DNA from: a virus
Length of the DNA: 44,868 nt
Reading direction: 5' to 3' (one strand)
IMG/VR virus record: IMGVR_UViG_3300045988_145891
The translations under genes were made by a program, and so were the position numbers. The stretch's first letter is position 1. The number at the start of each line of letters is the position of its first letter. Positions 1-44,868 of the stretch are shown in pieces. Under the pieces are notes generated by a model that ran no database searches, was not told the origin of the DNA, and worked only from the letters and a program-made list of their open reading frames with translations.

Positions 1-55
1 CACTTGTTGAATATCAATATCTTCTTGAATAACTTTAGGTTTCATTTTTCTTAAC
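1..55. repeat. Terminal redundancy: bases 1-55 are identical to 44814-44868, a circular-assembly overlap or terminal repeat
   Basis: Direct string identity between the first 55 nt and the last 55 nt of the window. Confidence 0.9.
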
Positions 56-228
56 GTTCTAAGACTTCCTGTTTCAGTAGGAATAAGATTAATTATTCTA
101 TTAGCTGTCAAATAATATATTTGACTATCTTTATTTATTCCTATCTTATCTCCGACTTCTCCTAAAGTATAATCAGTCTGATAGAAGCTAGTGGTTGATT
201 TATAGCCATATGAGTTACCCTTAGCCAT
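1..228 (-). CDS. N-terminal segment (~61 aa) of the tail tubular protein B-like (T7 gp12-like) gene, continuing in frame at 43140..44868 across the circular junction
   Basis: ATG at 226-228 preceded by RBS GAGGAGG at 7-nt spacing and overlapping the upstream stop (ATGGCTAA). It reads in frame (183 nt = 61 codons) into the MKPKVIQ start at 45, which equals 44858. Confidence 0.5.
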   Translation of the reverse strand, partial: MAKGNSYGYKSTTSFYQTDYTLGEVGDKIGINKDSQIYYLTANRIINLIPTETGSLRTLRKMKPKVIQEDIDIQQV

Positions 229-817
229 TATATACACCTCCTCTAAGATTTAATGGTATTGCACTTCCCTCAGCTAATATAACATTAGTTTTCTCAACTT
301 GTAACTTACTTTCAAGATATGGTAACCTATCAGCATACATTGGTATAGTTTGAGCAAGTTTAACTGCTAACATCAATACAAGATAGTCCTTAATATACTC
401 TGGAAATTCTGTTAGTGGTAATCTTCTAACATAGTTAAGTATTAATGGGTTAGAGTATGAGTAGATATATTCTCCCTCTAATCTTAAATCAATAGGTCTA
501 TTTCCCCTAACTAAAGTCTGAATACTCTCAACTGTAAAAGGTGTTCTAGTATTAACAATAGGTTTCTTCTTAATTCCTAAAAAATCTTCTGGAACATTAT
601 ATCTATGTTCTCCTGTGTTAGTATCTAATTCACTAACTGTTAGTTGTACTGTTGTACTTGGAAAGTTAAACTCATTACTCTTACATACACTATCAGCTAT
701 ACTATTTAGTAACTTGGTTGCCATCTGATATATGTTACTTCTGTTATCATTGTAGTCAGTAATGTTTCCAACTGTAATAAGTGCTAATTCAATAATTTGT
801 CCTCTTTCTAACATTAT
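221..817 (-). CDS. Tail tubular protein A-like (T7 gp11-like adaptor/gatekeeper), ~198 aa
   Basis: Size and position immediately upstream of a ~630-aa partner. N-terminal and C-terminal (PE....Y.V) patterns resemble T7 gp11. Probable start is the third ATG, 8 nt after GGAGTG. Confidence 0.45.
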   Translation of the reverse strand: MMLERGQIIELALITVGNITDYNDNRSNIYQMATKLLNSIADSVCKSNEFNFPSTTVQLTVSELDTNTGEHRYNVPEDFLGIKKKPIVNTRTPFTVESIQTLVRGNRPIDLRLEGEYIYSYSNPLILNYVRRLPLTEFPEYIKDYLVLMLAVKLAQTIPMYADRLPYLESKLQVEKTNVILAEGSAIPLNLRGGVYNG

Positions 818-841
818 CATCACTCCTTTTTGATTTTATTA

Positions 842-870
842 TAACATAAAAGGCTAGGTGTTCCCTAGCC
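842..870. terminator. Hairpin GGCTAGG-tgttc-CCTAGCC with flanking T-rich tract between the holin stop and the gp11-like start
   Basis: 7-bp perfect stem with T-rich tracts on both strands. Confidence 0.35.
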
Positions 871-1134
871 ATTATTTTTCTTCCTTATTTCATCTGTTAG
901 TGCTTTGATTAATTTTCCGTGTTCTTCTAGTGCTTTTGTTGATTCTAACTGAATTTTAGAATTGACTTCTAATAGTTGCCTATTTGCAGCCATCAAATAA
1001 TTCATAAATTCAGTGTTTTGGTCTATAATCTTTTGAACATAGTGTTTCATCATTAAAACTACAACTATACCTATTGTTCCATTAATACCAGCTTCCTTTA
1101 ATACTTTAATTAAATCTAATTCCATAGGCACCAC
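865..1134 (-). CDS. Small holin-like protein (N-terminal TM, charged helical C-terminus; BhlA/UviB-type architecture), 89 aa
   Basis: One predicted TM (GINGTIGIVVVLMM) followed by coiled-coil. Lies immediately downstream of the endolysin. Confidence 0.45.
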   Translation of the reverse strand: MVPMELDLIKVLKEAGINGTIGIVVVLMMKHYVQKIIDQNTEFMNYLMAANRQLLEVNSKIQLESTKALEEHGKLIKALTDEIRKKNNG

Positions 1135-1512
1135 CTAATCATTTATTTGTACATGAGGTCCATCAATAAAGGTTTCCCAATATGCACCACATTCAATATT
1201 AAATCCAAGTCTATGAGCTAATTGCATTATAACATCAGCAAACTCTCTATAATACTTAATATCCCAAGTAACTTGTCCATTCTCATCTATTATTGCAATA
1301 TCAAAGGCACTACCTGTCAAGTGTTTAGATTTCATAGTCTTAGATTTACCCTCTGCTACAAGTTGCTTTTGTCTTTCCTCTGTCCTAACTCCCTCAGTTA
1401 CAACAAAATCATACGGGGAATAGTCCAGCATTAAACCAAGAAGTATTATCAGTCTAAAGTCAATACCTTCTATGTTAGATAAACTTCTTTTACTAAATTT
1501 GTATTTAGTCAT
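1135..1512 (-). CDS. Endolysin, peptidase M15 family (L-alanyl-D-glutamate / D-Ala-D-Ala zinc peptidase), single domain, 125 aa
   Basis: Motifs SKHLTGSAFDI (H-x3-G-x-A-x-D) and DGPHVQ (D-x-x-H) typical of Peptidase_M15/VanY-type lysins. No cell-wall-binding domain. Confidence 0.7.
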   Translation of the reverse strand: MTKYKFSKRSLSNIEGIDFRLIILLGLMLDYSPYDFVVTEGVRTEERQKQLVAEGKSKTMKSKHLTGSAFDIAIIDENGQVTWDIKYYREFADVIMQLAHRLGFNIECGAYWETFIDGPHVQIND

Positions 1513-1525
1513 ATTAAAACCTCCT

Positions 1526-1891
1526 TTATATTGTTATATAATCTTTTATATTATTAAAAGTTGTTTCTCCTATAAACTTTCTAATCTCGTATATATCTTT
1601 ATAAGGTCTGTTTTCTATTATCTTATTAGCTTTGACTTCTCCTATTCCATCAAGACTATCTAAAGCTTCATAAGAACAGTCATTAATATTAATCTTGTCT
1701 ATATTAGGTTTATTATCTATATTCACTATTTGAGCATTAGTCTGATAATTGTTATTATAAAAATTAGCTTTATAAAACATTATATTTAATGCAGCTAACA
1801 TAAACATTCCTAAAATATTTATGATACATAGAAAAAATACTAATTTAACAACCAAGTTTACATTTAGATTTCCATTTCTTTTTAAATTCAT
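1526..1891 (-). CDS. Membrane-anchored ComEA-like helix-hairpin-helix DNA-binding protein, ~121 aa
   Basis: N-terminal TM. C-terminus ININDCSYEALDSLDGIGEVKANKIIENRPYKDIYEIRKFIGETTFNNIKDYITI matches the ComEA HhH tandem (LxxLPGIG...GIGEKTFEKIKDYITV). RBS GAGGTGG before ATG at 1891. Confidence 0.65.
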   Translation of the reverse strand: MNLKRNGNLNVNLVVKLVFFLCIINILGMFMLAALNIMFYKANFYNNNYQTNAQIVNIDNKPNIDKININDCSYEALDSLDGIGEVKANKIIENRPYKDIYEIRKFIGETTFNNIKDYITI

Positions 1892-1962
1892 ATTTACCAC
1901 CTCATTTGTATTGTATCATTAAATTAAATTTTACGCTATAATCAATTTAGGTAGGTGGTGGT

Positions 1963-2154
1963 ATGTTATTTAGAAAGAATGTAGATTATGAAAAGATAAG
2001 TTTTAATTCTCCAAAAGAAGTGGTTAAGAAGATAGATGAGATAAGTGAGTTTTACTTTTGCAATAGAACTGATGTCATAAATGAAGCTATTAATTATTAT
2101 CACAAAAGTTTTAAAAAGAAATTGAATAGACTAGAAAAAAGAGAGCCTAAATAG
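1963..2154 (+). CDS. Ribbon-helix-helix (CopG/Arc/MetJ-like) DNA-binding protein, 63 aa, encoded antisense to the surrounding late operon
   Basis: RBS AGGTGGTGG. Pattern beta-strand KISFNSPKEV then helix ...NRTDVINEAINYY (R-S/T-D/E-h-I-x-EAI hallmark of RHH). Confidence 0.5.
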   Translation: MLFRKNVDYEKISFNSPKEVVKKIDEISEFYFCNRTDVINEAINYYHKSFKKKLNRLEKREPK

Positions 2155-2161
2155 ACTCTCT
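2134..2161 (-). terminator. Rho-independent terminator (AGAGAG-loop-CTCTCT + T6) after the 100-aa gene, overlapping the 3' end of the plus-strand RHH gene (bidirectional)
   Basis: 6-bp GC-containing stem followed by TTTTTT on the minus strand. Confidence 0.55.
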
Positions 2162-2165
2162 AATT

Positions 2166-2468
2166 TTATACTGTGAATTTAGAAATTTTCATTTTTAATT
2201 CTTCAATGTTTTCTATAACATAACAGTAGAATGTCTTATATTCAGAACTTCCTGTCATATTATTTGCTTTTTTATAAGTTTCTATCTTATCTTTGATGAT
2301 ATCTGCGTGTTCCATTCTTGATTTAGCGTCAGCCATTGTAAATCTAGCCATTTCTTTCTCATCATGTTCTTTCATCTTAATAGCTTCCCAATACATTCTC
2401 ATTCCATCATCAAGGTCATCTTGCATACGTCTATAAAGACTTTCTAATACTATATCGTGTTTTTCCAT
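2166..2468 (-). CDS. Hypothetical protein, 100 aa
   Basis: ORF with RBS in the late operon. No recognisable motif. Confidence 0.4.
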   Translation of the reverse strand: MEKHDIVLESLYRRMQDDLDDGMRMYWEAIKMKEHDEKEMARFTMADAKSRMEHADIIKDKIETYKKANNMTGSSEYKTFYCYVIENIEELKMKISKFTV

Positions 2469-2544
2469 TATATATCCTCTCCTATCATAAATCCTATTAT
2501 CATTCCTATTAGAAAAAAGAAGTTTTGCATAATATCACTTCCTT

Positions 2545-2868
2545 TTATTGTCCTCTCATCATTGAATAAAGTTTGTCAATATCCTGTTCGTTGAATATCA
2601 ATCCTTTTATTTCAATTTTACCTCCGGTAGCTTTTATTCCCTCTTTAGCTGCCTTGTATAATGCTTCTATATCAACATTTCCATCTTGGTCTATAATTTC
2701 CATAGACTGTAACAACTTCATGTGTTCTTGAATTAATTTTTCAGTTTTCCCCATAACTAGAACACTTCCTGTTGCTAATGCAAATTTCATTAATGAACTT
2801 GGCATAACAGGTAGTACTACATCTTTTATATATTTTCCTATTACTAATTCTACATCAACGATTTTCAT
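2545..2868 (-). CDS. Hypothetical protein, 107 aa
   Basis: ORF in the late operon. No recognisable motif. Confidence 0.4.
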   Translation of the reverse strand: MKIVDVELVIGKYIKDVVLPVMPSSLMKFALATGSVLVMGKTEKLIQEHMKLLQSMEIIDQDGNVDIEALYKAAKEGIKATGGKIEIKGLIFNEQDIDKLYSMMRGQ

Positions 2869-2917
2869 AGATTATCTCCTTTTTAGAAATTAAGGGTAGA
2901 TTTCTCTACCCTGTAAT

Positions 2918-3533
2918 TTATTTAGTTTGAGCATTTCCTGTAATGCTTACATTTGTAGGTGCTGCTGCAGTTGGTGCTGTCCAAGAGTTAAACTCTGGCA
3001 TAGGTTGTGGACAAATACTTCCTATTGGCATTACTAATTTACCTGGTACGAATGTTGCATTTACATAACAGTATAAGTTGTTATCTCCTGCAACTCTTCT
3101 TTCAGACTCGACTGCAATAGCTCCAGAAAGTCTTTCTTCAACTGCTTTTAATTTAAGGTCATTGATTTCTTGGTCTTTAGCCATAGTAGTTTTAATACAT
3201 TCAACTTCTTTATCAAGTCTTGAAACTGCATTTCCTACTTGTAAGAAACCATCAGTTACTTTTGCTAAAACTGCAGCTAATTTCTCATCTTCTTTTCTGA
3301 ACTCATTAAAAGTTTCCTTTTGAGTTGCTAGAGCAACTTGGTCTGCATATCTCTCTCCTCTACATTGAGCTAATTCTGCTTCTAATGTAGAAACTCTGTT
3401 AGTTGCACAGTTGTTACCAAAAAAGTCCTCCTAAAAGTCCATTCCCACAATTGCCATTCATTAGTCCTAATGCAGTACCTGCTATACCTAGTCCTAGTCC
3501 TGCTCCTGCTACACCTTTACTTGCGTATTCCAT
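2918..3533 (-). CDS. Frameshifted gene: N-terminal glycine-zipper TM segment (39-aa ORF 3414-3533), then a +1-frame coiled-coil and Pro/Cys-rich C-terminal part (open frame 3418 to 2918); i-spanin-like architecture
   Basis: Strong RBS AGGAGG before ATG 3533. The first frame stops at TAA 3414-3416, but the second frame is open with no start codon for 78 codons upstream of MAKDQ (3184). The junction is a T6/A6 homopolymer at 3419-3424. Confidence 0.5.
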
Positions 3534-3636
3534 AATGATACCTCCTAATAATATTATTAGAGATTTCTCTCTTAACTGAATAATATCACTTATTAAGAGA
3601 TAATATTGAAAAGAGTATAAAATAATATCAAGGCAA

Positions 3637-3670
3637 TAAAAAAAGCTAGAATAAATCTAGCTTTAAAAAA
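3637..3670. terminator. Bidirectional rho-independent terminator (AAGCTAGA-ataaa-TCTAGCTT flanked by A/T runs) after the membrane-protein gene
   Basis: 8-bp stem with T-runs on both strands. Confidence 0.55.
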
Positions 3671-3673
3671 ATT

Positions 3674-4006
3674 TTATTTTATTTTTTTGTCCATATGTTT
3701 TTTACCTAAAATCATACCTCCAAGTGCTAAAACAAGATAAGTTAGTTCCTCTGGAATAGGTAGAACATATATTTGTTTTCCAGTAAATGCAGTTAAGTAA
3801 GGTGCAACTATATGTTGATTAATTACCAATAATGAATAAACATAGAATAAGTGGAGTATTCCACCTCTTTCTATTATTCCAGAAAAAGCATTAATTTTTG
3901 TTTTTTCAACATCAGCCATTATCTCATCTACTTTTCCCTTGTCTAAATGTCTTTGGAGTAACTCTGGTAAAAATCTTTTTATTAAACCTAATATAAAATT
4001 ACTCAT
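3674..4006 (-). CDS. Small membrane protein with 2 predicted TM helices (possible holin), ~110 aa; start at the internal ATG with RBS GGGGG
   Basis: Hydrophobic segments LHLFYVYSLLVINQHIV and LTYLVLALGGMILG. The RBS supports the MSNF start rather than the ORF-track MYRKY start. Confidence 0.4.
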   Translation of the reverse strand: MSNFILGLIKRFLPELLQRHLDKGKVDEIMADVEKTKINAFSGIIERGGILHLFYVYSLLVINQHIVAPYLTAFTGKQIYVLPIPEELTYLVLALGGMILGKKHMDKKIK

Positions 4007-4106
4007 AATATACCCCCTATACTTTGCTATTCGTTGAATAATGTATTTCCTATACAAAATACTATAATTAATAGTCTAATGTATAAGAATTGATTTTAGA
4101 TATAAA

Positions 4107-6089
4107 TTATAGATTTTTAAGTGTATCATTCAATTTATCAACTTCATCAAAACTAAAAGTTCTAGGTTTAGTTTCTACTTTAGGTGTAGATGTAGTTCCT
4201 AAATATTTCTCCATAAATTTTACAACACTCTCTGGAATAGTAGGCTCTTCTAATCTCTCAACTAAACTCAAGTTCATCATTACATTGTTACCATACTGTT
4301 GCTCGAACTCTTCCCAAGTTAGATTAGGGTTGTCTTGTAATAATAACTCGTAAGCTTCGTATTTAGCTTTTTGTTCTGCTTCAACTTGTTTATCATACTT
4401 AAATTTCTCTAATGAATATTCTAAATAATCTTGTTTAACCCCCTCTAGTTCCATAGCATACTGCATTGTAGGTGTGTTAAGTGTCGAAATAACTTCATTA
4501 TTCAATGTTATTAATTTATTTTTTTCAGCTAACCTAAATATCAAATTGTTAAAGTCACTTTCAGTGTATGCAAACTTAGAATGTTGTGAAGTTAATATCC
4601 CTTTTGGGTTAAACGCATCATAAACATCTTTACTCTTATAATATCTTACTCCATCTACATTTAATTCATATTTAAAATCTCCTAAAGGTTGAACTAAAAC
4701 GTTGTAGTTACCTATTCTTGAATTAGATATATATATACTTACATTATCTCCATTTACATCAATAATTCTTTTTCCCGTTAAACCATTTTCGTATTCGAAT
4801 TTAGAATTTGATATATTAATATTAGCACTTGTTTTAATAACCCCCATAGCTGTATTTGCAGGTGCTGGAATAGCACTGAACAATCCTTTATTTGTTGTAG
4901 AATGATAATAAATAATTACATCACTCATAGTTGTCGGTTGATTAGTGTCTATCAAATAACCATCTATTCTCTCAGAAGAAAAGTTATTTATAATGCAATC
5001 TCCGTCGCCTCTTGAGTAAAAGAATGGTGTTGCTATATTTATTGTTCCGTTGTATTTCGATTGAACACCATAGCAATTACTTACAGACCAACCGTTGTTG
5101 TTTTGAGAATGTACAAAAAATCTTCCTGCATCAACGTGACATTGGTCTATAAATATATGGTTAGCACTACCTGTTATTTCCAATCCAGCGGTAAGCTCAT
5201 AAGCTTTATTGTATCCATAACATAAGCAATTACTTATATTACCCCAATCCATTCTACCTAACTTTATGAATGTAGCATTTGTTATTAACCTTTCCATTAA
5301 ATTTGGAGCAGAACTTCCTGTAAGACCTACTATATTAGGGTTTGAGTGTATTCTAGTTATATTATTTGCATCAACACATTTATCAATATGAATAAAAGTT
5401 TTTGTAGCAACCCCAATGACATCATCTATATAACTAGCTAGCAATCCTTTTGTAGCATCTATACCTACACAACACAATCCTAACGAAACTCTTTCTAATT
5501 TACAATACCCACCACTTTCTTTAAAATATACTTGAGCTTCACATTCTACATACTCATCTTTTGGAACACTAGAAAAACCATCATTCTGATAATAAGCCAT
5601 TCTTTTAATAGTTAAGTTTCTACATTTAAATCTATCCCCTACAATGAGTCCTTTACCTAAATGATTTACTGATATACCTAAATCATATATTTGAGTATTA
5701 TACTTTTTAGTTTCCAATTCTGATGAAACAAGGTAGAATTTATTTACATCTCCTCTTATTATATTTATGTAATTTAAAGCCTTTTGTATAGCTTGGGTGT
5801 CGTCTGTTTTGGTGTCTCCTTTAGCTCCAAACCAAGATACATTTACTTCTCCATTGTGTATAATATTAGCCCATTTACCATTATCAATCTGGATACCAGA
5901 ACCATCATCACTGTCAGCAATTATTCTCTTATGATTAGCTCCATCTCCAGCTTGGTAGTAGCCAAGAATTTCTACTACCTTGCCAGATTTTAATTTACTA
6001 TCTTTTTGCATTTCTGCTATTGTATTATATACTTTTGCATTACCACCTAGTAGTCCTATACCAAGTGGTACTGATTTATCTTTAGCCAT
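4107..6089 (-). CDS. Tailspike / depolymerase with pectate-lyase-like right-handed beta-helix, 660 aa
   Basis: N-terminal motif WFGAKGDTKTDDTQAIQKAL (Pectate_lyase_3 / GH28-type signature). Size and position next to the tail fibre. Confidence 0.65.
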   Translation of the reverse strand: MAKDKSVPLGIGLLGGNAKVYNTIAEMQKDSKLKSGKVVEILGYYQAGDGANHKRIIADSDDGSGIQIDNGKWANIIHNGEVNVSWFGAKGDTKTDDTQAIQKALNYINIIRGDVNKFYLVSSELETKKYNTQIYDLGISVNHLGKGLIVGDRFKCRNLTIKRMAYYQNDGFSSVPKDEYVECEAQVYFKESGGYCKLERVSLGLCCVGIDATKGLLASYIDDVIGVATKTFIHIDKCVDANNITRIHSNPNIVGLTGSSAPNLMERLITNATFIKLGRMDWGNISNCLCYGYNKAYELTAGLEITGSANHIFIDQCHVDAGRFFVHSQNNNGWSVSNCYGVQSKYNGTINIATPFFYSRGDGDCIINNFSSERIDGYLIDTNQPTTMSDVIIYYHSTTNKGLFSAIPAPANTAMGVIKTSANINISNSKFEYENGLTGKRIIDVNGDNVSIYISNSRIGNYNVLVQPLGDFKYELNVDGVRYYKSKDVYDAFNPKGILTSQHSKFAYTESDFNNLIFRLAEKNKLITLNNEVISTLNTPTMQYAMELEGVKQDYLEYSLEKFKYDKQVEAEQKAKYEAYELLLQDNPNLTWEEFEQQYGNNVMMNLSLVERLEEPTIPESVVKFMEKYLGTTSTPKVETKPRTFSFDEVDKLNDTLKNL

Positions 6090-9000
6090 TTATATCCTCC
6101 TTAAGAAACTTTCAATTTTATCAACATAATACTTTTTATATCCCTCTTCATTAGGGTGCCAACCATCTGATTGATAAGTATATTTTGCTCTTAAACTAGG
6201 TATGTAGTTTAGTGGTGGACAATCAGAATGTAAGTCAACATATGGTATTCCCCATTTCTTTAACATTTCAATAGATATATCATAGTAACTTTCATCATAA
6301 GTGACACTCATTTTGTGAACTATAATAAATCCTATTTTTTTACCAGCGAAACGTTCAACTGTTTGTTTGCACATAGATTCAAAAGCTCCACAGTATGTTG
6401 TATCATCAAATGATTTATCATATCCATCAGTTATAGTTCCTAACGGGGCTTTAACTCCTCCGTCATTTACACCACCTTCAAGTAATACATAATCTGCATC
6501 TGTATCTAAATCTTGTATAGAACGACAAATCCAAAACCTTTTAGCTCCTGATGAAGAATATTGTTCTGCTGTAATAGTCCCACCACCAACAGCTATATTT
6601 TGATATTTCATATTATTTCTATCAGCTATAATTTTGCCATAACCACCTAAAAATCCAGCACCAGCACAGATGCTATCTCCTGTTAATGCTATTTTTTTAC
6701 CATATAGTATATTTGTAGCCACATCTATATTGTCTTTTAAATCTACATTAGGTATTATTTCTTTATACCCATATGGTACATATTCATCAGAAATATAATT
6801 CAAATAACAAGTATGATTATCTATACGTCCTAAAACTCCATTCAATCTAACCTTAGATATTTTATTATTATGAGGAACTTCATATAGTCCTTTTATCTGT
6901 GTTCCAGTAGTAGGTTCTTCATAGCTTATTCTTTTCAAAGTGCTTATTTTATTACCAGCATCATCATAACAATAACCACCAATAGCCTCTCCGTATTGTG
7001 GCATATATATCTTATCTAAAGATTTAATTGGTATAAAGTTAGTTAAAAAATATCTCGTATGGTCTTTTATATCTCCTACACCATCAACATATACGTTTGG
7101 TGTTATATCGTTTTTATTGAATAAATTTACATACTTTATATTTGTAGAACTGCCTAGTGAATACGATTTTATCTTTTCTTGAGTAATACTATTATCCTTT
7201 ATCATTTGTTTTTCTATTGATTTGACAAACTTTTTCCCGAAAATTAATTCGTTATACTCATAATATGTATTATCAAATTCCCTATTGATAGATATAACTA
7301 TTTCATTCTCTCTTAATGTACGATAATTAACTTTTACATATGATATTGTTTTATCATTAGGAACTCTATATCTACCTTTTGTTTGTTTTATACCCGGTGA
7401 CTCCTCTTCATACCCTTCTCTCACTAAATCTGCAACAAAAACATCATCAGAAGTATAACAAGACCCACCTTTAGGTTCTCCATATAAATTATTTCTGATT
7501 AAATCATTAGGTTGAACTTTTATTTTATGAGAATAAGAATATGCCTCGTCCGTTAAAATCTCACCGCTAGATAAATAACCACCATCAACATTTTCAATTG
7601 AGCCTTTATCAAAATAGTTCCCTATATCTATATCTTCAATTTTTCTTACAGTAACAGCATTATCAGCTATTTTATTTGTTGTAATTGAATTATCTTCAAT
7701 AGTAGGAGATACTGGAGTTTCTCCTGTCATAGCATTTATAACTTCTTCTGATAGATTTATTAATTTAATTTTGTCAGAGTCAGATGATGTTTTGAATTTA
7801 TATGCTGGGATAGAGTTATCTTGTATATCTTGTTCTGATATTTTTTTATTCTTTAATTCTTCTATCTCTTGCATATTTGTATTACTGTTTCCTAAAGCCT
7901 TATTTATAGCATTAACTACATTTTTATCTGTATCGTTAATACCATTTTCAATTTTATTTAATTTTGAGTTATCTAAATCTTCTGCTGTTCCATTATAATT
8001 ACCTTTATCTAATTTTGATTCTTTCAACTCATTGATATCATATTTTGTAGCTAAACCAATTCTTTCTGCTGTATCTAAATCAACAACATCGTAATCTAAA
8101 TCATAACTATCTCCAATATCTATATAAGCAACTTGTTTACCATCTATTTCAGATATATGAGCTAAATATTGGAAAGTTCCTATTTCATTCTTAGTTCTTG
8201 ATAAACCACCATCTACTTCTTGAGATAGGAAATAATACTCATCATAAACAAATGTCTCTCCTTTATCATCTCTTGCTTGTGTAGGTATATTTACTACACC
8301 TCTAGTTACAACGTCAAATCTGTCGTTATCTATCTTAATCGCTATTCCATCAGCACTTGTATATTTATTTGCTTTTACCCATTTTCTTGTAGCTCCATCT
8401 AAAGTAACAGCAGTAAATACAAATCCGTGATTAGCTTGAGTAAATTGCATTGTATCAGTTTGCCCACCTAATTCTTGCCATTCACTCCATACTTCATTTA
8501 TTCTTACAACAAAGAGCATCTTTCCTGTTGTAGTATAATATCTAATTACTTGAGAGTTTCCACCATCAGTAATATCTTTCTTAACAACTCCTGCATTATC
8601 TGATGAGTTTAATTGAGGTGGATAATGAATATAATTTTTATTAAATAAATCTACTACTAACCAGTTACCTAAACCTATCTCAAGCCAGTCACTACCCTCT
8701 GGCATTAAACCTTTATCTGCTACTGCTTGGTCTATCATAGTTTGTAGTCTTTCTTCTAGTTGAGTAGTATAATCATCTAATCTTTGTTTTAAATCAGTTT
8801 CAACATACTCATCTAATTGTCTTTTAACTTCTTCTAGTAACTCTCTTTCAGCTACTTCTAAGTCTTGCTCTAGTAGTTTTAGAACTTCTTGTCTTAACTC
8901 TTGTACTAAGTCATTAAACTTCTCAAATAGGCTATCAACAGGCATAGCAGCCATATTACCGTCTTTATCCATATACCAAGTAGTATATGGTTTTAATTCT

Positions 9001-9446
9001 GCCATTATCTTGTTACCATTAGAACTATCCATTACCATACCAACATCTTTAAGATAAGTAAATAAGAAAGTAACATCAGCTATTACCTCATTTAAGTGTT
9101 GATTAAGAGTTATTACATCTATCTGTCCACTAGGACTGTATGGAGAAGAAGTTAAGTCAACTACTCTAGCTAATTGTATTGAGTAATACTCATCTAGTAT
9201 ATCTAGGTTAGTTATCTCTAATTGCTTATTTCCACCAACCTCATTAATTCTATAATCTCCCTTAGGCATTTCACTATAAGTTTCTAAGAAAGCTTCTTGA
9301 TTATATTTCCTATAAAACACTGTTACCTTAGTCATATCTATTGTATTAAGCTCATAAGTTGCTTGACCTTTAATAATTAAGAACTCCTTAATAGGTAACA
9401 TTATCTTACCATTTTTAAATCCTGCCATAATTCCTCCTTTATACAA
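6090..9446 (-). CDS. Tail fibre protein with coiled-coil shaft, tail-fibre repeat motifs and C-terminal SGNH/GDSL esterase domain, 1118 aa
   Basis: C-terminus carries GDS (KKIALTGDSICAGAGF), GxND (GGVNDGG) and DxxH (DGWHPN) SGNH blocks. Repeats DNSITTNKIADNAVTVRKI and DNSITQEKI. Long heptad coiled-coil at aa 170-235. Confidence 0.65.
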   Translation of the reverse strand: MYKGGIMAGFKNGKIMLPIKEFLIIKGQATYELNTIDMTKVTVFYRKYNQEAFLETYSEMPKGDYRINEVGGNKQLEITNLDILDEYYSIQLARVVDLTSSPYSPSGQIDVITLNQHLNEVIADVTFLFTYLKDVGMVMDSSNGNKIMAELKPYTTWYMDKDGNMAAMPVDSLFEKFNDLVQELRQEVLKLLEQDLEVAERELLEEVKRQLDEYVETDLKQRLDDYTTQLEERLQTMIDQAVADKGLMPEGSDWLEIGLGNWLVVDLFNKNYIHYPPQLNSSDNAGVVKKDITDGGNSQVIRYYTTTGKMLFVVRINEVWSEWQELGGQTDTMQFTQANHGFVFTAVTLDGATRKWVKANKYTSADGIAIKIDNDRFDVVTRGVVNIPTQARDDKGETFVYDEYYFLSQEVDGGLSRTKNEIGTFQYLAHISEIDGKQVAYIDIGDSYDLDYDVVDLDTAERIGLATKYDINELKESKLDKGNYNGTAEDLDNSKLNKIENGINDTDKNVVNAINKALGNSNTNMQEIEELKNKKISEQDIQDNSIPAYKFKTSSDSDKIKLINLSEEVINAMTGETPVSPTIEDNSITTNKIADNAVTVRKIEDIDIGNYFDKGSIENVDGGYLSSGEILTDEAYSYSHKIKVQPNDLIRNNLYGEPKGGSCYTSDDVFVADLVREGYEEESPGIKQTKGRYRVPNDKTISYVKVNYRTLRENEIVISINREFDNTYYEYNELIFGKKFVKSIEKQMIKDNSITQEKIKSYSLGSSTNIKYVNLFNKNDITPNVYVDGVGDIKDHTRYFLTNFIPIKSLDKIYMPQYGEAIGGYCYDDAGNKISTLKRISYEEPTTGTQIKGLYEVPHNNKISKVRLNGVLGRIDNHTCYLNYISDEYVPYGYKEIIPNVDLKDNIDVATNILYGKKIALTGDSICAGAGFLGGYGKIIADRNNMKYQNIAVGGGTITAEQYSSSGAKRFWICRSIQDLDTDADYVLLEGGVNDGGVKAPLGTITDGYDKSFDDTTYCGAFESMCKQTVERFAGKKIGFIIVHKMSVTYDESYYDISIEMLKKWGIPYVDLHSDCPPLNYIPSLRAKYTYQSDGWHPNEEGYKKYYVDKIESFLRRI

Positions 9447-11658: not shown

Positions 11659-11974
11659 TTTTATCCTCCTTTTCTATTTTCTTTGTGTTGAGTTCGTGTA
11701 TTATTCTAGCTTTTCTAGTTAGTTCCAAATCATACTTAAGTTTCATTAGACTATCTCTTTTGCTTGGATATTGTCCATTTTCAACATAATACATTTCCTC
11801 TCCTTCTTTTATATCCATAATACAATAATTTATTAGATTTTGCAACTCTTTATTATCACAAAACATTTGCAATAGTTTTTTGTATTCTTTATTTACTGAT
11901 AAAACTGTATTTAAGTTCTCATCATAATATCCTTCATTTTCTTTTTTTATTTCTTCAAGCAACTTATTGTCCAT
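11645..11974 (-). CDS. Hypothetical protein, 109 aa
   Basis: ORF between portal and scaffold. Confidence 0.35.
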   Translation of the reverse strand: MDNKLLEEIKKENEGYYDENLNTVLSVNKEYKKLLQMFCDNKELQNLINYCIMDIKEGEEMYYVENGQYPSKRDSLMKLKYDLELTRKARIIHELNTKKIEKEDKNEKV

Positions 11975-13508
11975 TAGTTCCTCCTAACATTTGTTGAGCT
12001 TGTAAACTACTAGCAACTGCACTTTGCTTACTTGCTTCTCTCTCTTGATTAGTTAGCAATAATTCAGTATCTATTCTTAACTTGTCAGCCATATACTCAA
12101 TAGTCTTATCAGTGTTGAATATAAAGAAAGCATCTTGAGGGAAAATACCTTGTGATATTTGCACCATATTAACTATACCTTCTATCTTTTGCATATCAAC
12201 ACTCTTAGTAAGTGCATTGATAAATCTTGCCTTAAAGTATTTGTTATCATCTATCTTTTCTAGTAAATCCTTAGCAAGTAGTATTGCTCTAGGTTTATAG
12301 AAAGTAGGAATTAATACTTCTTTGAATAAGTTAGTTACTGCATCGTCAAATTTTTGTTGTAATAAATTCATTCTATATTGTATCTCATCAGTTGCCCTTG
12401 TAGTCTTGTTTTCAGCACTTCCAAAAGGGTTATTGAAGTGTAGTGCTTGTATAGTTGCTGTAAGTCTATCAATGTCCTTTTCAGTAGGTAATAGAGTACC
12501 TGTGGTATTGATAGGAGTTACTCCAGCCTTAACACTTAGTCCATCTCCTCCCCAGTTTAAACCATTAGGTGTTAAATCAAAAGCTTCTACTAATCTCTTA
12601 TCTCCATATAATAATAATGGTGGGTCAACTATTCTTAATGCTTGTCTAGCTCTTAAATTTTCATAGAATACTAATCTTTGGTAACAATCTAAAGCAACTG
12701 CACCTATTCCCATTCCCCAGCTAGATTGAGGTACAACACTAAATCTAAATACTGTGAAAGGGTTATAGTCATATATTCTCTCATCATATACTTCTGCTAT
12801 ACTATCATCAAATAATAACCACTCAAATTTTTGAACTCCATTCTCATTAAAAGGTACAACACATTCAGTAAAAGTAAATTTATTGTCTTCTTCTAAACTT
12901 CCAATATTAGCTCCAGGAAATATCTGAACTATTTCACTAGACTTTTTATTATAAACTTTTCTAAAGACTATATTAGGTTCTCCTCTATAATCTTCCATAA
13001 ACAATAACTCATTGATAGGAATATATTTAAAGTTAAAAGGGTCTGCATCAGAACTTAATTCATTTATTCTATAACAAGCTGTTCCAAGCTCCCCCCAGTC
13101 ATAAATACCTCTACCAATCTCTTGTTTGTAGTTAGTATTTCTTAAATACTCAAAAGTATCTTTTGTTTGAGATTCTAAAGTTTTTCTCAATTTCTTGACT
13201 GTTTCCTCTAATGCTTCTCCTGTAAATTTTCTATTCTGCCTAACTAGAGGAATAATAACATCACTCTCTGCCCAATCAGTTTCAACACCAAATAGTGCAT
13301 AAATAACAAAATTTTTAAAAGAATTACAAGCATCTCTTATCTCTGAATTTATGGTCCTATTGATAAAATCCTCTGGTAGTGCTATTGTATCAGCGTGTCC
13401 AAAAGGTAAGGTGTATTCCATTATCTGATTATATTGTGGAATGATAGCTTGTTTTTCAGCAACACAAGCCTTATAAAGTTCTTGATAATGTTCTAAATTA
13501 TTAAGCAC
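11964..13508 (-). CDS. Portal protein (putative), 514 aa
   Basis: Size and position between the terL region and the scaffold/capsid genes. Confidence 0.5.
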   Translation of the reverse strand: MLNNLEHYQELYKACVAEKQAIIPQYNQIMEYTLPFGHADTIALPEDFINRTINSEIRDACNSFKNFVIYALFGVETDWAESDVIIPLVRQNRKFTGEALEETVKKLRKTLESQTKDTFEYLRNTNYKQEIGRGIYDWGELGTACYRINELSSDADPFNFKYIPINELLFMEDYRGEPNIVFRKVYNKKSSEIVQIFPGANIGSLEEDNKFTFTECVVPFNENGVQKFEWLLFDDSIAEVYDERIYDYNPFTVFRFSVVPQSSWGMGIGAVALDCYQRLVFYENLRARQALRIVDPPLLLYGDKRLVEAFDLTPNGLNWGGDGLSVKAGVTPINTTGTLLPTEKDIDRLTATIQALHFNNPFGSAENKTTRATDEIQYRMNLLQQKFDDAVTNLFKEVLIPTFYKPRAILLAKDLLEKIDDNKYFKARFINALTKSVDMQKIEGIVNMVQISQGIFPQDAFFIFNTDKTIEYMADKLRIDTELLLTNQEREASKQSAVASSLQAQQMLGGTNGQ

Positions 13509-43143: not shown

Positions 43144-44868
43144 TCCTCTCCTGGTTTAAATTCTATTTCGGTTGCTTGAATTTCAAGCTCTTCTGTATTT
43201 TCTTTTGTTTCTAATTCTATATACATAGCATCTTTTAAATTTTTAGAGAAAACTACTGTATAAACATTATATACACCTTGCACTGTTTCTCCAAGTAATG
43301 AAGCATATATTCCACTTAACTTAACATTATTGACACTATCTCCTTGTTCTTCAAATAATTTCATTGTTAGTCTAGTAATCATAGTAGGAGTATCGTTTCT
43401 TAGGTTACCATACTTAGTAGTAGTAACAGGTGGTGCATTTAATTTAAGATAAGCATTTCTCATATTATTTTCAGTAAGAGTATATATTGAGTTTCCAGCA
43501 AATAAGCTAGTATCAAAACCTATACAATTTTGAGGAAATTCAACTGACACTCTACTAAAACTGTTAGTCTTAACTTCTGAATATAAGTAAGCTCCAATAT
43601 TATATTCTGATATTCTTGTACTATTCTTAAGTGAAGCTAACAGATATTTTTTATTATCTATTTTATGTTCTGATAATCTAACTATATCATCTGTACTGAA
43701 AAACTTATCAACAAAGTATGTATCAAAGTCAACATAACCTTTAGTTGATGTGATATTCTGAATACATTTCAACTCATTGTCAGTAGTTAGATAATATAAG
43801 CTATTTCCAACTAATTGACATTCAGTAGTAGCACTATCATCAGTAATTAACCTAACATCAATAGTAGCTCCTGTTATTACTTGGTTATACCCTAATAAGA
43901 ATATTCCTTTATCAGTAATTACCCAAATACCTCTACCAGCTATCATCTTAAGCACTCTAGGTTCTTCTCTATTGACATTTGACAACTTAATAAAAAAGGC
44001 ATCTGATGTTCCGCTATCATTTAAGAAATAATTATAATCTCCTACCCTGCTAAAATAGATATAAGAGCCGTCAGACACTATCATTCTATTCTGATATTCT
44101 AAAGCTATTTGAAAGGCTGTATCGTTGTTTAATGACTTCATAAGCCCAAAGTTAAGAAGTTGTGTTTTACCAAGTGTTCCTTCTCCTAAAGTTACTTTCT
44201 TGTAATAAGTTCCTGTTGTGTCATTAGTTTTCTCGTCAAATGTTATCTCTTGATTACCTAAATACCATTTACCCCCTTCTACTGTTTCTGGGTCGTATAT
44301 TGATACAAAATACTCATTTTCTTGAGCTTCCATAGGTGTAACATTGACTAAGTCAGTTCTATACGGATAGAATATTCTAGTTAAGTTTAAATCTGTGTTA
44401 TATCTAAATTTAAGTAATTTTTCCTCAACACTAAACTCTTGATTTTCAGTAGTTGACACCTTAAAAGCTCTAAGTTCTTTTTTACTTTCAGTAATCAGCA
44501 TATTTCTAACTTGATAAATATCAACCTTAACCTTACCTCTATTCTTAATAGGATTTCTAATACTATTAGCAAAATCAGCATTAATACCAGTTCTACCATC
44601 TGAATTTATCTCATAGTCTAATCTCTTAGTAGTAGTTCCATTAGTAACAGGTACTAATAAGAATTTATCTATTAATACTGCTCCGTTGGAATTTCTAGTA
44701 AATGTAAAGCTATCTCCAAAATCATATTTATTCTTAATTGTATGAGTTATCTTATCCACTGTTGCTATTCCTGTTGTAGTAATTAAGATATAAAAATTAT
44801 ATTTAGTATTAATCACTTGTTGAATATCAATATCTTCTTGAATAACTTTAGGTTTCATTTTTCTTAAC
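43140..44868 (-). CDS. Tail tubular protein B-like (T7 gp12-like nozzle), C-terminal 572-aa portion as seen in the linearised window; the gene continues through the junction to 228
   Basis: Follows the gp11-like gene. Large beta-rich protein. In-frame continuation across the 55-bp terminal overlap. Confidence 0.45.
   Translation of the reverse strand, partial: LRKMKPKVIQEDIDIQQVINTKYNFYILITTTGIATVDKITHTIKNKYDFGDSFTFTRNSNGAVLIDKFLLVPVTNGTTTKRLDYEINSDGRTGINADFANSIRNPIKNRGKVKVDIYQVRNMLITESKKELRAFKVSTTENQEFSVEEKLLKFRYNTDLNLTRIFYPYRTDLVNVTPMEAQENEYFVSIYDPETVEGGKWYLGNQEITFDEKTNDTTGTYYKKVTLGEGTLGKTQLLNFGLMKSLNNDTAFQIALEYQNRMIVSDGSYIYFSRVGDYNYFLNDSGTSDAFFIKLSNVNREEPRVLKMIAGRGIWVITDKGIFLLGYNQVITGATIDVRLITDDSATTECQLVGNSLYYLTTDNELKCIQNITSTKGYVDFDTYFVDKFFSTDDIVRLSEHKIDNKKYLLASLKNSTRISEYNIGAYLYSEVKTNSFSRVSVEFPQNCIGFDTSLFAGNSIYTLTENNMRNAYLKLNAPPVTTTKYGNLRNDTPTMITRLTMKLFEEQGDSVNNVKLSGIYASLLGETVQGVYNVYTVVFSKNLKDAMYIELETKENTEELEIQATEIEFKPGEE

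Follow-up and report, generated by a model that had tools for sequence, protein, structure and literature searches.

At the +1 frameshift site of prfB, the gene for RF2, an SD-like AGGGGG is separated by a 3-nt spacer from CUU UGA C, the stop codon stands in the A site, and the slip moves CUU to UUU (PMC13245932). Another kind of split gene is the homopolymer frameshift pseudogene, the outcome of a slipped-strand indel, which has look-alikes among sequencing errors; both show a one-base change in a short mononucleotide run, in a gene that is otherwise undamaged and has intact alleles in sister genomes. With respect to the encoded protein, the comparison is with the i-spanin of the lambda Rz type, the inner-membrane member of a two-component spanin: it is small, hydrophobic at its N-terminus and helical over a long region, and has conserved Cys and a Pro-rich C-terminus.

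We have examined a gene that shows likenesses to each of these systems. It lies on the minus strand, at 2918-3533, of a viral DNA of 44,868 nt (IMG/VR record IMGVR_UViG_3300045988_145891), which we refer to as the window. The original prediction, made from the letters alone, described a frameshift at a run of six T (T6), either a programmed +1 shift or an indel, in a gene for an i-spanin-like protein. We propose, with a probability of about 0.72, that T6 is a non-programmed single-T insertion and represents a real, very recent loss-of-function mutation in one phage population.

The split gene and its intact relatives

Direct reading of the sequence places a ribosome-binding site, AGGAGG, at 3546-3541 on the minus strand, with a spacer of 7 nt to an ATG at 3533. 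The ORF that starts here comprises 39 aa, reads MEYASKGVAGAGLGLGIAGTALGLMNGNCGNGLLGGLFW and ends at TAA 3416-3414; it contains a Gly-rich hydrophobic segment, and we regard it (3414-3533, minus strand) as the 5' fragment of a disrupted gene and its TAA as premature. The junction is GGA GGA CTT TTT TGG TAA, in which the T6 homopolymer occupies 3424-3419 on the minus strand (A6 at 3419-3424 on the plus strand). Behind a TAG at 3433-3431 the +1 frame begins at 3430 and stays open as far as TAA 2920-2918, and from 3418 onwards it holds no ATG, GTG or TTG for 78 codons, until the ATG at 3184 (MAKDQ). The short ORF with its strong ribosome-binding site, its TAA, the T6 junction and the long stretch devoid of start codons had all been claimed beforehand, and all are borne out by this reading. 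A frame of ~171 open codons has a probability of ~2e-7 of arising by chance at the base composition of the window (30% GC), and its homology establishes the +1 frame as coding. Its 166 codons and stop (2918-3418, minus strand) form the 3' part of the gene, with a long helix and a conserved C-terminal motif, YCYVNATFVPGKLVMP..ICP. Deletion of one T gives a continuous protein, as had been predicted, although its size is 204 aa rather than ~205.

An internal SD-like GGAGGA, made up of Gly-Gly codons, lies at 3426-3431 (minus strand) and with the A at 3432 completes an AGGAGG at 3432-3427, which ends 1 nt 5' of the CTT codon and 4 nt 5' of the UUU codon. The two frames overlap at the junction over 6 codons only. 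The gene follows the tail-fibre genes and a gene for a 110-aa protein, is situated ~1.4 kb upstream of an M15 endolysin gene, and stands between terminator-like hairpins. The first of these, followed by a T run, is found between the 110-aa gene and the split gene (3642-3664, minus strand), and the second, which is weak and has a poor T tail (TAATTTCTAA), just past the stop codon of the gene (2893-2912, minus strand).

A search of the protein collection with the fused protein gave 4232 homologues, the best of which cover it over its whole length. Once corrected to T5, the window product is 100% identical to a protein (P0122) that eight loci (L010-L017), each under a sample or assembly accession of its own, encode without interruption. 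The junction is CTT TTT GGT (T5) in every one of them, and they differ from the window gene at 2-13 nt, every difference being synonymous. The next relatives have CTA TTT GGT (L001), CTG TTT GGT (L002, L003 and L050) or TTG TTT GGT (L004), and GC-rich members of the family keep the peptide LLGGLFG by means of CTG TTC GGC and similar codons, without a T run. The peptide across the junction is therefore conserved while the T run is not, and the continuous frame is the ancestral one. The internal AGGAGG, which could stimulate slippage, is found just as well in the intact T5 genes, again as Gly-Gly codons. When the window is compared with nine relatives, the changes specific to it within the gene are the extra T and one synonymous substitution (nt 90), with none downstream of the shift; given a single unique substitution and none past the shift, the lesion is either evolutionarily fresh or artefactual.

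The comparison with related genomes that the original prediction called for thus finds one continuous ORF in the relatives examined, with T5 in the closest strains. These sequences show T6 to be an insertion by comparison with intact relatives and to be unique to one sample, and they show the intact gene to be under strong purifying selection elsewhere. The two halves of the proposal that the site is a programmed +1 shift or an indel therefore part company: the indel is upheld, because the T5-corrected product is P0122, which is intact in eight loci, while a programmed shift is not supported, because the shift is conserved in no relative.

Origin of the extra T

The window corresponds to contig NODE_718 of ENA assembly ERZ1745441, which was made with SPAdes at a coverage of 20.43. 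T6 recurs in two assemblies of run ERR532383, one made with MEGAHIT (ERZ925919) and 100% identical to the window over 20 kb, the other from Logan and different from the window by 1 base that adjoins the window end (99.99% identical). The three assemblers concur on T6, apparently from one read set. Calls of this exact 39-aa ORF are confined to contigs that match the window letter for letter, which come from run ERR532383 and assembly ERZ1745441. An exact-pattern scan for the T5 and T6 junctions found neither allele in IMG/VR, and the same scan of JGI metagenome contigs also returned neither junction and so no independent carrier of T6. The 55-nt terminal direct repeat of the window (1-55 and 44814-44868) is the k-mer overlap that SPAdes leaves in a circular assembly, and a 633-aa gene at the window ends is split solely by the cut of that circle.

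There is a small but appreciable chance that the true sequence is T5, that the gene is intact and that the extra T is a sequencing or consensus artefact which has spread from one read set. This would be consistent with the restriction of T6 to assemblies tied to ERR532383, with the T5 of all eight other loci, and with a gene that is flawless apart from the extra T. Against it, SPAdes at 20x, MEGAHIT and Logan all give T6, and a homopolymer of six bases is short for a systematic Illumina indel. Moreover, no second gene is frame-split by a shift in the ~20 kb for which relatives allow a comparison, the one other split gene there merely crossing the window ends. The window also holds 131 A/T runs of 6-8 bases, and its ORFs of 1610, 1118, 676 and 660 aa are nevertheless intact; homopolymer error is therefore not pervasive in the assembly. 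A real mutation is most likely, ahead of a consensus error, and we infer both that T6 is present in the DNA and that its consequence is loss of function.

The course of such a mutation can be outlined as follows. In the ancestral state the gene at 2918-3533 (minus strand) would be one ORF of 204 aa. One T would have been added to the T5 tract, most likely by replication slippage, so that CTT TTT GGT became CTT TTT T GGT, and translation from the ATG at 3533 would now stop after 39 residues at TAA 3416-3414. The 166 codons beyond would go untranslated because they have no start codon of their own, and the full-length protein would be lost or, at best, be made at trace level via spontaneous slippage. 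T6 would be carried by the majority of the phage population in one gut sample, in which a T5 minority may coexist; the phage was assembled as a complete circular genome at 20x despite the broken gene. In all this we see no distinctive difference from homopolymer frameshift pseudogenes as a class.

If T6 is real, the full-length protein might still be partly rescued by spontaneous +1 slippage on CUU UUU U, with help from the AGGAGG beside it, in a context that resembles prfB by chance, with a free 39-aa Gly-zipper membrane peptide made in addition; we give this little credence. More doubtful still is the proposal that T6 is decoded by +1 ribosomal frameshifting that is programmed or functionally relevant, in which tRNA-Leu would slip from CUU to UUU, or tRNA-Phe from UUU to UUU, aided by the AGGAGG, to yield the 39-aa peptide together with some full-length protein. 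P-site re-pairing is possible on CUU UUU U, and either slip would give exactly the conserved GGLFGNNC junction. The site also has in common with prfB a CUU able to re-pair on UUU, an SD-like AGGAGG just upstream and a nearby stop codon, and the overlap of the frames is confined to its few codons. However, the AGGAGG stands 1 nt from CUU or 4 nt from UUU where prfB has a spacer of 3 nt, the A-site codon is UUU or UGG and not a stop, the UAA following one codon further on, and the site has neither conservation across homologues nor an autoregulatory logic. The split-ORF arrangement is not conserved in any relative, thousands of family members having an unbroken ORF; T5 is found in the closest strains and no T run in other relatives; and the AGGAGG is accounted for by Gly-Gly codons that intact genes share.

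A variant of this proposal, slippage of RNA polymerase on U6, is less likely. Transcriptional slippage in bacteria typically occurs on A/T runs of at least 8-9 bases, and six U are short for efficiency; we rejected it on the length of the run, only 6 bases, and the lack of conservation.

Finally, the T tract might act as a reversible phase-variation switch that turns an accessory membrane protein on and off, a reading that finds some encouragement in the two tract lengths among near-identical genomes and in the terminator-like hairpins on either side of the gene, as in an accessory cassette with expression of its own. It is very improbable: there is a single OFF allele, which comes from one run, whereas eight loci are ON, the tract has only 5-6 bases, no other tract lengths were seen, and sister lineages that retain the gene have no tract. 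Programmed frameshifting and phase variation were both rejected for the shortness of the tract and the absence of conservation.

An uncharacterised protein family and the i-spanin comparison

The gene is a member of a large uncharacterised phage family, which comprises 1298 clusters at 50% identity (545 at E <= 1e-10), all of them stand-alone proteins of ~100-320 aa. The fused protein has no family match in Pfam, PHROGs, NCBIfam or PADLOC, and with PDB sequences the profile search yielded nothing beyond weak coiled-coil matches. Among isolated phages, blastn and tblastn found only distant homologues, in the Bacteroides phages DAC16-23 (42% identity) and in two unannotated gut phages; the annotation of DAC16 is 'hypothetical' throughout. 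Family members are present on Desulfovibrio, Treponema and Bacteroides-phage DNA, and also on MAG contigs labelled Clostridia, Lachnospiraceae and Oscillospiraceae, although MAG binning is unreliable for phage DNA. Our literature search on the phage group found nothing relevant.

Conserved features of the family are an N-terminal segment, ASKGVAGxGLGLGIAGTALGL, followed by a Gly/Asn/Cys linker and then a helix of variable length, and a C-terminal motif, ALESERRxxGDxNLYCYVNATFVPGKLVMPxxSICPxxMPxxNSWxAPT. In the window protein the N-terminal segment, GVAGAGLGLGIAGTALGLM, has a 19-residue Kyte-Doolittle mean of 1.55, which is borderline, and the AlphaFold2 confidence there is low. The Gly-rich hydrophobic N-terminus that had been described as a transmembrane segment is accordingly present, but its transmembrane status is borderline. 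AlphaFold2 models the 204-aa protein as a single helix from residue 44 to 160 with poorly predicted ends (pLDDT 67). The predicted architecture of this N-terminus, a long helix and a Pro/Cys-rich C-terminus is real and conserved, and the original description of the helix as a coiled coil rests on this model.

Class I viral fusion subunits, such as influenza HA2, and orbivirus VP5 likewise combine a Gly-rich hydrophobic peptide at the N-terminus with a long coiled coil behind it. Weak profile matches were obtained to both (HA2, E 0.013-0.3; Orbi_VP5, 0.0015 in 6 of 43 members), but the scores are at noise level and typical of coiled-coil composition, so that we treat the resemblance as a lead and not as evidence.

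The likeness to i-spanins extends to genomic position, since this is a late-region gene near an endolysin gene. However, four other genes separate the two, the contigs that carry family members are assigned both to monoderms (Clostridia) and to diderms (Desulfovibrio, Bacteroides and Treponema), and the constant partner of the family is a soluble helical protein of 107 aa. A search for lipobox ORFs on the coding strand of window 1-4200, alternative frames included, found none, and so no embedded or adjacent o-spanin, and no spanin family of PHROGs or Pfam matches the fused protein. The literature on glycine-zipper spanins yielded nothing relevant. Membership of a two-component spanin was rejected for want of an o-spanin candidate, and the description of the protein as i-spanin-like is an unsupported guess in view of the lipobox result, the missing spanin family match and the members on monoderm-labelled contigs, unreliable as such labels are for phage DNA.

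The 110-aa protein (window 3674-4006, minus strand) has two hydrophobic segments and a Lys-rich C-terminus, with a terminator-like hairpin after its gene and no family match, and looks holin-like by inspection. An ORF of 86-89 aa directly after the M15 endolysin gene (window 865-1134, minus strand) encodes a protein that is hydrophobic near its N-terminus and has a helical, charged tail; as a lysis protein of holin-like or i-spanin-like type it is better placed than the split gene. On the upstream side the endolysin gene is closely preceded (window 1526-1900, minus strand) by a gene for a ComEA-like HHH_3 DNA-binding domain behind a strongly hydrophobic N-terminus (Kyte-Doolittle mean 2.69). 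This gene is conserved in relatives and is an unusual member of a lysis region. When the neighbours of the split gene were searched in Pfam, PHROGs, NCBIfam and PADLOC, only the endolysin and the HHH protein were matched.

The partner gene and mobile elements

The gene for the 107-aa protein (2545-2868, minus strand) is a conserved downstream partner, with which the split gene would form a two-gene module. A homologue lies directly downstream of a family member in L021, L023, L024, L025, L027, L030, L035, L036, L038, L046 and L049, at least 11 distant loci in all, among them Desulfovibrio, Clostridia and Oscillospiraceae contigs. On the Desulfovibrio contigs the gene pair is found at the edge of a mobile element or prophage, adjoining chromosomal genes. 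The AlphaFold2 model of the partner has a pLDDT of 90 and is that of a soluble, helical protein; a fold search with it found no solved structure and only uncharacterised gut-phage proteins, including crAss-like cr108_1 and cr118_1. Our guess is that the gene and its partner constitute a membrane-active late or lysis-associated module, and they could represent a new and widespread lysis or membrane-active module of gut phages.

Several relatives carry mobile elements in or beside the gene. In L050 (617-1500, homologous to window ~3485) a group I intron of ~850 nt interrupts the gene behind codon 16 (ALGLG|IAGT) and contains an ORF for an HNH_3/NUMOD4 endonuclease; the intron matches Rfam RF00028 with 39.7 bits, which is below the gathering score of 50, and an E value of 2.5e-8. 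Calls of 187-191 aa that appear to be N-terminally truncated (P0008, P0010, P0123 and P0124) probably reflect this intron. In two of the loci with an intact gene, a free-standing gene for a 238-aa GIY-YIG/NUMOD3 homing endonuclease is located immediately upstream (L010 9151-9867 and L013 4644-5360), at a site equivalent to window ~3540-3670.

There are also signs of exchange on a larger scale. The locus L011 (Logan SRR11551369_8139) has a different phage backbone, with a 542-aa portal, Acb2_Tad1 and Sequestin anti-defence genes and other tail genes, and nonetheless carries an identical 204-aa protein (4 nt differences) together with the same 107-aa and 100-aa genes, so that the cassette appears to have been exchanged between phage lineages. 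Comparison of window 4107-9446 (minus strand) with L010, L012 and L014 reveals that tail-fibre/depolymerase modules have been swapped among genomes that are otherwise 95-99% identical: the window encodes proteins of 1112 aa (GDSL-lipase-type) and 660 aa where its relatives have Beta_helix, BNR_2 or other versions. For the portal (window 11964-13508, minus strand) the best matches among isolated phages are the Fusobacterium phages phiBB and FNU4, at ~29-30% identity, which together with the 30% GC and the absence of tRNA genes is a weak hint as to the host.

The intron and the adjacent homing endonuclease genes in relatives suggest an important late function. There is some tension with our preferred reading of T6 as a recent inactivating insertion, since the phage assembled as a complete circle with a broken gene that elsewhere is under strong purifying selection and is targeted by an intron and homing endonucleases; either the phage can do without the gene for a time, or a product of it continues to be made. 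The frameshift itself would be an ordinary one-off single-base event of a known kind, and is of low interest as a candidate for recoding. In annotation the locus should be flagged as one disrupted gene, and neither as two genes nor as recoding, and the 39-aa and 88-aa ORFs called for this contig in public protein collections should be read as fragments of a single gene. Of more use than the frameshift is the large, unnamed family of gut-phage proteins to which the gene belongs, with its fixed partner gene, and this family is worth experimental study.
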